This document shows, piece after piece, positions 3,001 to 9,000 of a stretch of DNA of 64,000 nt (position 1 is the first letter of the stretch; each line of letters opens with the position of its first letter). The position numbers are program-made. Origin of the DNA: an uncultured delta proteobacterium (GTDB taxonomy: Bacteria; Desulfobacterota; Zymogenia; Zymogenales; Zymogenaceae); the NCBI GenBank assembly GCA_963735595.1, contig CAVTLK010000005.1, forward strand, positions 1-64,000, given 5' to 3'.

Positions 3001-6000
3001 GATCACGCCGTACAGTTCGTATTCACCGTTTATACCCTGGGTGGTCATTCCGGCGTATATCTACTGCTTTATCCGCGCCCGCAAGGAGTCGCACCGCGCG
3101 CAGCTGGTGTTGCTGAATTTCCTCTTCTTTTATATCTACCTGTCGTTCCTGAATATTATCGGATGCATCTATACCGAAACTCGGACCGGGACCGACATCC
3201 TTCGTATATCGTATCGATGGATGGAGTTCCTTCTATTGCTCAAGTGGAGAAATAGGGGTCAAATCTTTTGTTGACACTTCTTCTATCATAGGTTAGCATT
3301 ACCACCATGACGCGACCACTTAGAATCGAATACCCCGATGCGTGGTATCATGTTATGAATCGGGGAAGAAGGCGAGAAACAATCTTTAACGAGGATGCGG
3401 ATTTCGACATCTTCCTCGCGCTCCTTCAGGAATCGAGCGAGCTCTGGGGAGTCCGTATTGCGGCGTATTGCCTGATGTCCAATCACTACCACCTTCTGGT
3501 GCAGACGCCACGCGCCAATCTTTCCCGGGCCATGCGGCATATCGACGGGATCTATACGCAACGATACAACCGCCGCCACAAGACAGTCGGGCAGGTGTTT
3601 GCAGGAAGGTATAAGTCCATACTCGTTGACGCGGATTCATACCTCCTTGACGTCGTGCGGTATATACACAAGAACCCCGTTCGGGCGGGTATGGTGAGCG
3701 ACCCGAGACGATACCCGTGGTCGAGTCATTCGGGGTACCTGGCCGACGGTCCGAAGTGGGATTGGCTCTATAAGGGGTTTGTGCTTTCGACTTTTTCGGC
3801 CGATGGCAGCGAGGCAAGGAGGAGATATAGACGCTTCATGGCGGATGACGATACGGAGGAGATAATCCGCTTTTTCGGCGGGAAAACGGTCCATGCGGTT
3901 TTGGGGAGCGATCGGTTTACCAAGTGGGTACGGGAGCGTTTCTCGGATCGTGGTAGAGACAGCGAGATATCGGGATCACAACTCCTCCTGCCGGGCATCG
4001 AAGAGGTAGTGGACGCGGTATGCGCGGAATATGGTGTTGGCCGGGACGGGCTGTTGATTTCGAGGCGCGGAGTGGCCAACGAGGCGCGAAACGTAGCGAT
4101 GTACCTCTCAAGGCGTCTTTGCGGCGAGACTCTTAGTAGGATCGCCGAGCGTTTCAATTTGACCGGTTACAGCACCGTCAGCAATATGGTGGAGCGGATG
4201 AAAAGGCGGGAGGTACTGGACGGCGGGTTGAGGGAGAGGATCGAAAGAGTGACGATCGGGATGAAGAAGTGACAACAAAAGATTTGACCCCCCTGGTTCC
4301 CGGCCCCCTGGTCTTCGCAACCCCGTCCCGCATCACGTAGTAGGCAGCCCGCGCCAGCTTGGGGAGGGATAAGGGGTCGAGTCTCCGTTTGACTCTTATT
4401 GGCTCTTATGATATATCTTTATCATGGCTCGACCTCTGAGAATAGAATACCCCGACGCATGGTATCTTATAATGAACCGGGGGAGACAACGGGAAGACGT
4501 CTTTACCGATCCTGCGGACTTTAATGCCTTTCTTAAGCTCCTGGAAGAGTCGACACAGCTCTGGGGCGTTCGCATTGCCGCTTACTGCCTGATGTCCAAT
4601 CACTATCATCTTCTCGTCCAGACGCCCCTGGGCAATCTTTCCCGGGCCATGCGCCATATAGACGGGATCTACACGCAACGATTCAACCGCCGCCACAAGA
4701 CGGTCGGCCAGCTGTTTGCCGGCAGATATCAATCGATCCTCGTTGACGCGGATACGTATCTCCTCCAACTGGTGCGTTACATCCACCGGAATCCCCGACG
4801 TGCCGGCACGGCGGCTAAACCGGAGCAGTACCCGTGGACGAGCCATCATGGGTATCTGTCGGATGCGAAACAGTGGGGCTGGCTCCATAAAGACTATGTG
4901 CTCTCCCAATTCTCGAGCGAGCCGCGTGCGAGAAGGCAGGCGTATAAGGAGTTCGTCGCCGATGATGATTCGGAGGAAATCCGACGTTTTTTTAAGGAAA
5001 AGAATGTCCCTGGTGTTTTAGGGAGCGATGTGTTTATTAAATCGGTACGCGATCGCTTTTCAAGCCAAAAGGCGCACGAGGAGGTGCCGGAATCGAAGCT
5101 GCTGTTGCCCGAGATAGAGGAGGTTGCCGACGCGGTATGCGCGGTTTACGGGGTGGAAAGAGACGTACTGTTGGTATCCAAACGAAAGACAGCAAACGAA
5201 CCACGCAATATGGCGATATATCTATCGAGGAGGCTATGCGGGGCGACGCTTCGGGAAATCAGGGATTGGTTCAACCTCCACAGCGACAGCTCCGTCGGCA
5301 GTGTGATAGAACGGATGACCGTATTGGAATCAAAAAATAGTAAAGTAAGGAAGAGTATAGGGCTGGTGAACGCGCAGATGAACAGATGAATCGGCGATAA
5401 ACGGAGACGTGACCCCCTTACGTTAGTTGAATCCTCTATGAAACACAATATGGACACGAAACGCTACGATGTCTTTCTGGTCTCTACGGGACTAAAAAAT
5501 ATCGAAGTCCTCAGGGTAATCCGCTACTACACGGGCCTGGACTTGAAACCGGCGGTGGTGCTTGCGGAGTCGGCCCCGGCGGTGGTCTGGTCCGGCGATG
5601 CCAGAGGCAACGCCGAGAAGATGGTGCGGCACCTTGAAGAGGCCGGCGCGGTGGCGGAGGTCAGGGAGGCCTCCGGCGTCGACCCCGTCGCGGGCGCCCC
5701 GGACGGCGGGGGCCGGGTGATACGGATCGGCGATCCGGGTCGGAACATACTAGAGGTTATCAAGGTGATCCGGCAGTATACCGACCTCGGGTTGAAAGAG
5801 GCCAAGGTGTTGGTGGAATCCGCCCCGGGGGCGCTGTGCCCCGTGCCGGCAGGCGCCGACGCCGAGAGGATGCGGTACGACCTCGAACGTGCCGGGGCCA
5901 CGGCGTGGGTGGCCGGAGGCCCGGATACCGTCCCGCCTCCCGGGGAACCCGGCGCCGGTGGAGACTACGCCGTGTTCCTCGTCGATCCGGGGCCAAGGAC

Positions 6001-9000
6001 CATCGAGGTCATCAAGGTCGTCCGCCGATACACGGGAATGGGCCTCAAGGAGGCAAAGACACTCGTGGAGGGCGGCGCGGGGCCGGTTTCTTCCGGGGTC
6101 TCCCGAGAGACCGCGGAAAACATCTGGCGCGATCTTCATGACGCCGGCGCGACGGTCGAAGTCAGGGCACTCTAAGGCGACGGTAGAAAGGCCAGTCACG
6201 CCGATCGCCCCGTCTCTACTGCCTCCCCTCCCACTCCTCCCGTAATAATCCGTACATCACCATGTCCTTAAATACGCCGTCGCGAAATACGTGGCGGCGC
6301 AGCACGCCCTCCTGCGTCATACCGATTTTTTCCAGCACGCGGCCGGAGGCCGGGTTGCCGCCGAACCGTGCGGCCGATATCCGGTTGAGCGCCATCGTCT
6401 CAAACCCCCAGCCGACGACTGCCGCGGCCGCCTCGGTCGCGTAGCCCTTCCCCCAGTAGTCACGCCCCAACCAGTAGCCGAGCTCGCCCCGCTTATGATC
6501 GGCAAGCAGCTCAACCCCGCAGGCCCCCATCAGCAGGCCGTTGTCTTTTTCGGTTATCGCAAAGACCGCGCCGGTGCCCGCACGCGTCTGCTCCCTCTGT
6601 ATCGAGAGCCACAGGCGTGCGTCGGCCTCAGTGTAGGGATGGGGTATCTTGAGCGTGTTGCGGTATATCTCGATATCGTCGGCCAGTCGGCCCACTGCCG
6701 GCACGTCGCCCTCGCCGAACGGCCGAAGCAAAAGCCGCCGGGTTGTGAGCGTTAACCCGCCTTTCATGGTGTTGCTCCTCTCGATCAGGGATGAGGTCGG
6801 ACTATATCCTATAGTATCGGACATAGCGTACGCCATGTCAAACCTATTGTCTGAAAGGACGGCCGCCGCCGCGACATCGTACGGCGCGCGTGAAAAATGG
6901 AAGGGTAAGGGGCGGGAAACGCACTTTTTTGTTGACAAAGGGGTTAATGCGCTTCATAATGCTAAACAATGTTTACATGGTAATATACTACGTTACTTCT
7001 CGTTGGAACGGGACTATCATTCGAACGGCGTTAACCAACCCTGATTGCGCCCGCTCTGCCCGGTTCACCTGCCGCACGCCGTCCCAAGGCCCCCGGACCG
7101 ACTTCTCGGAGGCGCGCCATGATTACCAAAAAGGACATCCTCTTTACCTGCTCGTACCTGCCGGAAGAGATCATTATCGCGGCGGGGCTCCGCCCCGTGC
7201 GGGTAATGTCCGGCGCCCGCCCCTCGGACGCCGACACGGCCATTCACCCGACGACCTGCCCCTACATCAGGTCGGTCTTTGCCGCTGCGGCGCGGGGCGA
7301 CCACGCCGCGGCCGCAGGGCTGGTGATCGTCAACTCGTGCGACGGGATGCGGCGGCTCTATGACGCCGTGGCGGCGTTGCGCGGGGGGGCCCCCGTGGTC
7401 TTTCTTGACGTGCCGCATAAAAGCGACGCGGATGCCGTCGACCTGTTTGCCGGCGGGCTGCGGCGGCTGGCGGGACAAATCGAAAAGGAGTTAGGCGGGA
7501 CCCCGGTGACGCCGTCCGCCCTGGAGAAGGCCATCGTACATACGAACTCGCTACGCCGGAAGATGGCGGAAGTCTTTACGCTGGAGGCGGACGGCACGCT
7601 TTCCGGCAGGGCCGTCTTTTCGCTCCTCGCCGACGGGGCGACCGGTAATCTTCAGGGCGGGGACGGACGTATCGATAAATTAATTTCCCAAGCGCGGGGA
7701 ACGGGCACTGCCGCCGGCAAACGGATCGTCGTTTCGGCCAATGTATTAGACCGGCCCGACCTCGTCGAGATGATCGAGGACGCCGGCGGGAGCGTCGTCG
7801 CGCTGGATACCTGCGTGGGCGCGCGCCACTGGGAGGGGCTTGTCGCCGAGGGATCGCCCGACCCGATACGGGCCGTCGCCGAACGCTACCTGACGCGCCC
7901 CGCGTGTGCCCGTATGGAGGGGATCGGGCGGCGGATCGATTGGCTGGTGAGCCTGGCCGGGGACTCCCGGGCCGACGGCGTTATCCTCTGTTCGGTGAAG
8001 TACTGCGACGCCTGGCTCTACGACCTGCCGCTACTGACGGAAGAGATGGAGCGCGCGGGGGTACGCGTGCTGTCGATAGAAAACGACTACGAATGGTCAG
8101 GCGCGGGCCAGACGAAAACGCGTATCGAGGCGTTCCTCGAAACGCTGAGCAAGGGAGGCAGGCAATGTTGAAGATGATGCTTACCGAGATGAGGCGCCAG
8201 GCCACCGAGGCGCTTTCGGCAAAGGCCGACGCGCGCGCTTTATGGTTCGCCGAGTGGGCCAAGCTCTTCCTGGCGGCATACGACACGGACCGGCCCGTTG
8301 TCTATACGTCGCTTTACGCCTTCCCCATGGAAATCCTGCATTCGTGCGACGTTGCCCCCTTCGACTTTGAGCTGGGCGCATCCATGCTGCTTACGCTTCC
8401 TATCGGGGCCGACCTCATCGGCGAGGCGGAAACGCGGGGCTATCCGGCCGATATCTGCTCGTTTCATCGGGCATCGCTGGCTTCCTACTATCGAGACTAT
8501 TTCCCAAAACCCGACCTGTTGATCACGACCTCATTTTACTGCGCCGGCAAGCCAAGGACCAGCGAGATCCTCTCGCGCCTCTACGACAGGCCGGGCCGCC
8601 TCCTGTCGGTCCCCCAGGAGATAACCGCCGAATCGATCCGCTACGTCTCCGGCCAGCTCAGGCTGATCGCTCAAGACGTCTCCGCGCTGACGGGGTCGCC
8701 GTTTGACGAGGACCGGCTCAGGGAGGCGGTAAAAAACTCCAATCGTGCGCGCGCCTCGCACCTGGCGCTGCTGGATCTGCTCAAGCACCGTCCGGCTCCC
8801 TGGGGCGGAAACCAGCTCGTCAACTACTCGATCTTCTCAAGAATGTTTGACGGATCTCCGGTGCTCGGCGATATCCATGAGGCGTTCATCGGAAAACTGA
8901 AGGCGCGCATCGAGGGCGGCAAGCTGCGACCTGAGCGGCACCGCGTATTCTGGTACGCCTGGGTGCCGACCTACAACAGCGGGATCTTCGAGACCCTTAC

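Follow-up and report, generated by a model that had tools for sequence, protein, structure and literature searches.

The window, a stretch of 64,000 nucleotides from an uncultured delta proteobacterium (forward strand of contig CAVTLK010000005.1), contains a gene whose product carries three copies of a C-terminal domain (CTD), that from the ribosomal stalk protein bL12. Two RAYT-like elements precede it. The features are as follows.

3255..4291, + strand: a further RAYT-like element, bounded by 29-nt terminal inverted repeats; the related genomes G005 and G004 lack it at this locus
4373..5416, + strand: RAYT-like element (Y1-transposase plus DnaA_C), with 18-nt terminal inverted repeats; ends 21 nt before the start codon of the next gene
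5438..6175, + strand: three-CTD gene, 245 aa, three bL12 C-terminal domains
5456..5665, + strand: repeat 1, aa 7-76; its face for binding factors is degenerate
5666..5707, + strand: linker 1, Gly/Pro-rich; length varies between orthologues
5708..5914, + strand: repeat 2, aa 91-159
5915..5956, + strand: linker 2, Gly/Pro-rich
5957..6166, + strand: repeat 3, aa 174-243; the repeat closest to canonical bL12

The gene is real and encodes three bL12 CTDs with no ribosome anchor, just as the initial annotation held. Pfam finds PF00542 in three stretches (E 1e-49; 167 bits against a cut-off of 25.9), no second domain besides these, and, at E 0.1, no match to PF16320, the N-terminal dimerisation and L10-binding domain. 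Repeat 1 begins at residue 7, and the N-domain and hinge of bL12 are absent. The protein has neither a signal peptide nor a membrane segment, and it passes the cut-off of TIGR00855 (NCBIfam) solely through the summed repeats. The repeats are 40-51% identical to the CTD of the host's own rplL (40% for repeat 1, 51% for repeat 3), and repeat 3 matches solved bL12 chains (E 4e-13). The canonical rplL had been described as intact and far off, and so it is: the operon copy, complete with its N-domain, lies on a separate contig of this genome (C4). The three-CTD gene lies outside the rplJ-rplL-rpoB operon, flanked by transposase elements and a GNAT gene.

It was hinted at first that the gene might be mobile and tied to the RAYT transposases. 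That idea fails: in G004 the gene occupies this locus although no RAYT is present, and the ends of the nearer element close at 5416, leaving the gene outside, so it is ruled out as RAYT cargo. The number of elements preceding the gene is zero in G004, one in G005, and two in G000 (this genome), and these elements are separate insertions. Upstream of the gene, G004 has a promoter-like site where G000 has the end of an element, and a search of the + strand from 4448 up to the gene yielded no sigma-70-type site. The Shine-Dalgarno score falls within the weakest 10% of 1604 proxy genes (a weak test, as tuf itself is only middling), and codon use is ordinary, at the 31st percentile, by a test that discriminates poorly, a transposase having reached the 90th. 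Of four RNA runs, three yielded no cover; from the fourth, a wetland library, came short contigs of relatives, which also fall on a transposase and the GNAT gene, so they are no proof of transcription. The gene lies among housekeeping genes and not in a defence island, and the stand-alone forms examined have no conserved partner gene beside them. Little speaks for a functional link with the convergent GNAT gene: its RimL score is 28 bits, far below the cut-off of 184, and G004 has two genes in between.

The gene sits at the same locus in three of the four genomes of the genus, the fadD-to-GNAT locus being common to G000, G004 and G005. These same three are the only ones among ten genomes of the class to carry a three-repeat gene. 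The initial annotation had counted four, but the match in G001 is a two-repeat protein at another locus; it starts with a Cys-rich stretch resembling a zinc ribbon, and its C-terminus is hydrophobic. Absence from G003 is uninformative, because the orthologue of the neighbouring dehydratase was not found there either. The 13 full-length three-repeat homologues claimed at 51-81% identity hold up as 12 besides the query, joined later by a 13th (P0264). The claim of four-repeat relatives of 310-322 aa is right for those of 315-322 aa, one of which is named Myxococcales, but the 310-aa protein (P0018) has three repeats, following a signal-peptide-like N-terminus. The gene arose by tandem triplication, the G004 copy being a tandem unit of 3 x 252 nt. 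A quick tree of 83 domains, with 41 of 80 inner branches unresolved, served for the grouping of repeats only.

The gene is under purifying selection, with dN/dS of 0.36-0.48 against two relatives. Measured against G005, repeats 2 and 3 stand at 0.085 and 0.25, similar to the neighbouring GNAT and dehydratase genes (0.13 and 0.30), while repeat 1 stands at 0.56; when G005 is compared with G004, repeat 1 gives 0.16.

What has been retained in these repeats? The published GTPase-binding site of bL12 consists of helices 4 and 5 (PMC6753160). The initial annotation saw the pattern VIKVIR...LGLKEAK in every repeat, which is incorrect. In repeat 1 it reads VLRVIR...LDLKPAV (changes I69L, K70R, G79D, E82P and K84V, in E. 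coli numbering), and only R73, L80 and K81 remain of the face. Repeats 2 and 3 both have I69, K70, R73, L80, K81 and K84, and repeat 2 has E82 as well. K65 is lost from all three, replaced by N, I and T, respectively. Among 13 orthologues the helix-4/5 patch is 89% conserved, against 71% at other exposed positions, and when the repeats of one protein are compared with each other, identity is 0.83 for the basic patch and 0.32 for other exposed positions, a difference seen in all 13. The same holds more broadly. Over 485 non-ribosomal repeats, K65 is kept in 82%, K70 in 82%, R73 in 80%, K81 in 59% and K84 in 87%, figures that may be inflated by a search profile seeded with helix-5 motifs. The lysines outside the patch (K92, K95, K100, K107 and K108) are kept in only 5-26% of these repeats but in 80-97% of 88 canonical CTDs. 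At least one repeat with the full set K65, I/V69, K70, R73, L80 and K84 occurs in 146 of 167 non-ribosomal proteins; none of the three repeats in this genome has it. The basic residues of helices 4 and 5 are thus selectively retained. The orthologues also have conserved positions of their own that are absent from rplL, for example Y75 in all repeats and W95 in repeat 1.

As a stand-alone form, the protein belongs to a widespread and modular family of bL12-CTD repeats, which the initial annotation missed. The 142 multi-repeat relatives include fusions to TIR (10), Ser/Thr kinase (4), PNP_UDP_1 (1) and KAP NTPase (1) domains. Eight of the ten TIR fusions contain S-x-x-hydrophobic-x-x-E, which I take to be the motif of the catalytic glutamate. 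About 37 of the 142 have N-termini resembling signal peptides or those of lipoproteins, and fn3, adhesin, dockerin or LRR domains occur in some of these; two lipoprotein-like relatives join L12 CTDs to EF-Tu domains 2-3 with no G domain. Effector fusions are features of distant relatives; the gene considered here has no such fusion and lies in no conserved conflict operon. No fused form of its own subfamily was found, because none of the multi-repeat proteins among 88 longer matches exceeds 41% identity, although this search is weak for long proteins. PADLOC-DB gave no match at E 0.1 among 5027 models for the three-CTD protein, one RAYT and the GNAT protein. Six weak matches in PHROGs, to families of unknown function, cover the helix-4/5 stretch. 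The ESM Atlas gave only single-domain L7/L12 clusters below 0.9, and a scan of metagenomes mainly picked up canonical rplL, without any locus belonging to this subfamily. In 151 genomes from the phylum of a Myxococcales bin, only that bin matched at E 1e-30, a threshold too strict for two-repeat forms.

How does this compare with what is known? Canonical bL12 (L7/L12; PF00542 plus PF16320, TIGR00855; PDB 1ctf, 1dd3) shares with each repeat the PF00542 domain, and with repeats 2 and 3 the basic residues of helices 4 and 5. The three-CTD protein differs in lacking the N-terminal domain, the lysines outside the patch and K65, in having three heads per chain, one of them degenerate, and in being encoded away from rplJL-rpoB. 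Phages too encode bL12 domains outside rplL, often inside unrelated polypeptides and with the factor-contact residues kept (Mizuno et al. 2019, PMC6375957). In 70 of 70 distinct domain-bearing frames from 80 viral loci there is one domain each, whereas the present gene is chromosomal and tandem, with no other domain. That the gene belongs to a virus or prophage is contradicted by the syntenic chromosomal locus in three genomes, and none of the 17 phage or 50 plasmid records with a match covers 80% of the query. The L12/ClpS domain serves elsewhere as a mobile module in conflict and signalling proteins (Kaur et al. 2020, PMC7159879; Lipocone, PMC12419801; PMC8283722), where its company is vWA-MoxR components, HTH membrane proteins or a caspase; this reuse parallels the TIR, kinase and NTPase fusions. 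The available text of these papers gives brief mentions, with no tested function and no stand-alone tandem protein, and the three-CTD gene, unlike those modules, has no effector or conserved partner gene. No description of the tandem form was found in the literature, though architectures of this kind may be listed in the supplements to PMC7159879 and PMC12419801.

It is plausible, then, that this is a free protein displaying the factor-binding face of the stalk. I propose, with something short of even confidence, that its role is that of a weak bait or adaptor, free of the ribosome, for translational GTPases, and not that of a bulk sink. The basic face of repeats 2 and 3 would contact EF-Tu, EF-G and IF2. 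Each translation factor has one L12 site, so three heads should give no avidity on a monomeric factor, and this together with the loss of K65 would make binding weak. The loss need not abolish it, since in one study the binding between L7/L12 and EF-Tu became only about 2- to 4-fold weaker when K65 or K70 was changed (PMC10602876). The protein may be the effector-less form of a bait module that elsewhere is joined to domains of the TIR, kinase, nucleoside-phosphorylase and NTPase kinds. Without draining the pool, it would hold a small number of factors (or acidic surfaces that resemble them) or present them to a partner.

The initial annotation went further, supposing that the bait sequesters or clusters GTPases off the ribosome, which the evidence does not support. 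The retained patch makes a bait plausible, but an amount of protein large enough to throttle translation is quite improbable. Free L7/L12 is said in one study to bind EF-Tu at sub-micromolar concentrations, and relatives of the gene appear, weakly, in the wetland library; yet such a protein would face competition from the stalk heads of tens of thousands of ribosomes, each of which has four (E. coli; PMC5770553). Add to this the expected lack of avidity, the degenerate head, the poor Shine-Dalgarno sequence and the ordinary codon use, weak tests as these are. Might the gene instead be a decaying duplicate, without a current function in this lineage, the transposase elements having severed it from its promoter? 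Repeat 1 is relaxed and on a long branch, K65 is gone, and an element end has replaced the promoter-like site of G004. Against decay, the reading frame is intact, repeats 2 and 3 evolve like their neighbours, and there are at least 12 full-length orthologues, which makes this very improbable.

Two other ideas look to the family for support. The repeats may be decoys, copying a bL12 surface hit by a phage protein, toxin or antibiotic and so soaking up the attacker, with the TIR and kinase fusions as integrated decoys that trigger an effector. The TIR fusions and their motif fit, as do the exported forms, and the two relatives with EF-Tu domains suit mimicry of translation surfaces. R76 and K84 of Neisseria RplL presumably correspond to E. 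coli R73 and K81. Changes at these two residues confer oxydifficidin resistance (PMC12119084), and L12/ClpS insertions are noted in conflict systems (PMC7159879) and in one cyanobacterial orthocaspase (PMC8283722). For this gene a decoy is nonetheless unlikely: PADLOC and the housekeeping neighbourhood offer no sign of defence, the searches made brought up no protein attacker of the bL12 CTD, and K81 is the least kept of the patch residues. Alternatively, the basic-hydrophobic face may be a generic module, unrelated to translation, that binds an acidic protein surface, a polyanion or other copies of the domain. In 41 proteins with signal-peptide-like N-termini the patch is kept equally well (between repeats, 0.73 vs 0.32 for other exposed positions), so patch conservation alone is no proof of GTPase binding; exported forms would not meet working cytoplasmic GTPases, so the patch might bind something else or be needed for the structure. 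The orthologues' own conserved positions and a fold common to ClpS (hence the name L12/ClpS) point the same way. A generic role seems rather unlikely here: it requires a new ligand that uses the same residues as the GTPases, and the protein is cytoplasmic, where GTPases are abundant.

What of the family as a whole? It is possible, though doubtful, that bL12 heads in tandem form a bacterial bait domain, so far undescribed, that is directed at the translation apparatus. The fusions to TIR, kinase, phosphorylase, caspase and NTPase domains would then sense elongation factors or stalk-grabbing phage proteins and switch on the effector, the stand-alone forms would be soluble decoys, and those that are exported would catch EF-Tu that other cells release. 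This would be a counterpart to the integrated decoys of plant immune receptors. With its one degenerate head and without K65, the copy in this genome is a poor model; the orthologues P0009, P0011, P0013 and P0014, each with three intact heads, or the TIR fusions, are better cases for testing. The stalk head is usually regarded as a part of the ribosome. Repeats off the ribosome that keep its factor-binding face, fused to TIR or kinase domains or exported, would suggest a novel means by which elongation factors, or whatever attacks them, are sensed or handled.

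The open frame at 5438-6175 on the forward strand encodes 245 residues, within which a Pfam scan finds PF00542, the bL12 C-terminal domain (CTD), three times (E 1e-49). There is no match to the bL12 N-terminal domain at E 0.1, so the initial annotation was right on both counts. The repeats, joined by Gly/Pro-rich linkers, are 48-50% identical to one another and 40-51% identical to the CTD of the host's rplL. The whole genome holds four PF00542 matches, these three and canonical rplL, which is intact as claimed: a separate copy on another contig (C4), downstream of rplJ, with its own N-domain. 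Without the anchor domain, and with its gene outside the rplL operon, the repeat protein is not a bL12. In G004, a genome of the same genus, the gene is three 252-nt units in tandem, and it therefore came about when a single unit of domain plus linker was triplicated.

Repeats of the protein and elements ahead of its gene
Residues 7-76: repeat 1, PF00542 domain
Residues 91-159: repeat 2, PF00542 domain
Residues 174-243: repeat 3, PF00542 domain
3255-4291: RAYT-like element 1; terminal inverted repeats 3255-3283/4263-4291 (29 nt), GGGGTC...GACCCC
4373-5416: RAYT-like element 2; terminal inverted repeats 4373-4390/5399-5416 (18 nt), GGGGTC...GACCCC

The suspicion that the gene is a mobile accessory tied to RAYT transposases must be given up. 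Both elements are bounded by terminal inverted repeats of their own, so the repeat gene lies outside them, and it occupies the same locus, between an acyl-CoA ligase gene on one side and a GNAT/dehydratase cluster on the other, whether two elements precede it (here), one (G005, same genus) or none (G004). None of 50 plasmid matches and none of 17 phage matches covers 80% of the protein. The two tandem Y1-transposase + DnaA_C genes of the elements are 63% identical, the sole such pair in the genome, and under purifying selection (dN/dS 0.12-0.13); one of the two passes the cut-off for REP-associated tyrosine transposases, and the ends resemble terminal repeats, not REP arrays. In G004, judged by eye, TTGACA-17-TACCAT stands directly upstream of the gene, which is followed by a hairpin and its T-rich tail. 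Here an element ends 21 nt ahead of the start codon, and the forward strand from 4448 to the gene yielded no sigma-70-type site, so expression would probably rely on read-through. In one wetland RNA library, short contigs of relatives lie over 5720-6219, but they cover the neighbours too and are not taken as transcription.

Between repeat gene and GNAT gene, the G004 contig carries a perfect 26-nt inverted repeat pair and two unassigned, membrane-like 277-aa genes (L099:5789-5870 and 6057-7698); this slot seems insertion-prone, as does 2843-3274 of the window. Several genes within 1-16000 and near 551000 of C4, among them the acyl-CoA ligase gene (887-2785) and a copy of EF-Tu, are apparently frameshift-split, which suggests long-read assembly errors.

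At least 12 full-length three-repeat homologues, 51-81% identical, occur among 120 matches listed, and a separate search supplies one more. Of the four genomes in ten of the class credited with the gene, three have it; what matches in the fourth, G001, is a protein of two repeats that begins with a Cys-rich stretch, ends in a hydrophobic tail and is encoded at a different locus. The gene was not found in G003, the fourth genus member, which says little, since the neighbouring dehydratase orthologue is also missing there. A profile scan counts more than one PF00542 match in 22 of 301 phylum genomes; 18 of these lie outside the family, and in the 5 of them that were checked, including all four with three or more matches, the extras are partial and weak and fall in separate frames.

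The repeat gene is being maintained; in this lineage selection on repeat 1 is relaxed. Whole-gene dN/dS is 0.48 against G005, 0.38 against G004 and 0.36 between those two. By part, against G005, it is 0.56, 0.085 and 0.25 for repeats 1 to 3, from small counts, and 0.89 for the linkers (neighbours: GNAT 0.13, dehydratase 0.30). Residues were numbered by alignment to E. coli bL12 with K70 as anchor, which matches the lysine positions in passages of PMC10602876. The statement that every repeat keeps the factor-binding helix pattern holds for repeats 2 and 3 (I69, K70, R73, L80, K81, E82 and K84 all retained) and fails for repeat 1 (I69L, K70R, G79D, E82P, K84V), and K65 is substituted in all three. 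The full set of patch residues (K65, I/V69, K70, R73, L80, K84) is present in every repeat of orthologues P0009, P0011, P0013 and P0014, and in no repeat of 4 of the 13 orthologues, this protein among them.

Helices 4-5, which carry the patch, are described as the GTPase-binding face of bL12 (in part of PMC6753160). To see what is kept, 485 non-ribosomal repeats drawn from 167 proteins were set against 88 canonical CTDs, after exclusion of seven rplL-/L10-derivative-like proteins and of domains under 50 profile positions. The 485 repeats keep K65 (82%), K70 (82%), R73 (80%), K81 (59%) and K84 (87%), while K92, K95, K100, K107 and K108 are kept in 5-26% of them versus 80-97% of canonical CTDs. 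Because the search profile was seeded with helix-5 motifs, repeats were also compared within proteins, skipping those with repeats over 80% identical. Identity at the patch versus other exposed positions (exposure assigned from the fold; kin are non-independent) is 0.83 versus 0.32 in orthologues (patch higher in 13/13), 0.87 versus 0.45 in TIR fusions (8/8) and 0.73 versus 0.32 in predicted signal-peptide proteins (38/41). On these alignments the published GTPase-binding face is selectively kept, in proteins predicted to be exported as well, which cuts both ways.

A single-domain family profile, built from 30 non-ribosomal repeats and run over 1.84 billion representatives, gives 312 proteins with E values up to 1e-30, with 2-9 stretches in 150 of 150 among matches listed. 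Pfam scanning of 142 new relatives among those listed finds TIR (10), Ser/Thr kinase (4), LRV (2), EF-Tu domains 2-3 (2), PNP_UDP_1 (1) and KAP NTPase (1), with fn3, adhesin, dockerin or LRR domains in several; about 37 have predicted signal-peptide- or lipoprotein-like N-termini (hydropathy and eye, not SignalP). A search of longer proteins adds fusions with Hsp70, TerB and AAA and more with TIR and kinases, none of them a fused form of the subfamily studied here. Individual fusions are rare: of ten proteins looked up, seven are single-member clusters. In a quick, poorly resolved domain tree the repeats mostly cluster by protein or position, which suggests repeated independent amplification, and the three repeats here do not group with the host rplL.

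TIR is joined to two to four CTD repeats in P0139, P0164, P0171, P0191, P0194, P0215, P0235, P0242, P0247 and P0258. In the lipoprotein-like P0227 and P0236 the CTD repeats are combined with domains 2-3 of EF-Tu, the G domain being absent; EF-Tu domain 2 is also listed, with Hsp70, in P0346. Canonical-looking P0028, P0031 and P0228 have an N-domain and duplicated CTD, possibly two-headed stalk proteins or assembly artefacts. Nannocystis species have seven-repeat proteins; in N. exedens a HipA-like kinase + DUF3037 pair (L007:1694-2825) lies about 2 kb from its seven-repeat gene, and no such pair was seen in the examined stretch of another locus, L012.

Outside rplL, bL12 domains are known in phages (PMC6375957), and passages elsewhere mention them in vWA-MoxR systems (PMC7159879), Lipocone neighbourhoods (PMC12419801) and one orthocaspase (PMC8283722). 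In 80 viral loci all 70 distinct domain-bearing frames are single-domain; on viral contigs L302-L344 many phage matches retain mostly the helix-4/5 hairpin in otherwise diverged small proteins, which the search pattern favours. The bL12 passages of a 2024 review of extraribosomal functions (PMC10931766) mention no tandem head protein, and a full-text literature search (main texts, most subscription journals lying outside it) returned no description of stand-alone tandem proteins or TIR-L12 fusions.

What might such a protein do? The initial annotation saw a bait that sequesters translational GTPases. Each translation factor has a single L12 site. For that reason, because ribosomes in the tens of thousands (as given in part of PMC5770553) would compete with stalk sites of their own, and because nothing in the gene points to high expression (a weak test), bulk sequestration is improbable. 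A decoy for stalk-targeting phage proteins, toxins or antibiotics would fit the TIR fusions, the predicted exported forms and the oxydifficidin-resistance sites reported in RplL (passages of PMC12119084, PMC12732368), but the gene does not sit in a defence island, and I consider this unlikely here. A ligand outside translation is rather more doubtful than a decoy, and decay of the gene, relaxed in repeat 1 and maintained as a whole, is the least probable reading of all.

I tentatively propose, as the best reading and one that could well be wrong, that repeats 2 and 3 would weakly bind EF-Tu, EF-G or IF2, since the ancestral ligand is the simplest for a cytoplasmic protein. In one study, substituting K65 or K70 cost binding to EF-Tu only some 2- to 4-fold (passages of PMC10602876). 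The repeat gene is real and under selection, a tandem, anchor-less bL12 head belonging to a widespread, apparently unstudied family of modules, and that family is of more interest than the partly degenerate copy found here.
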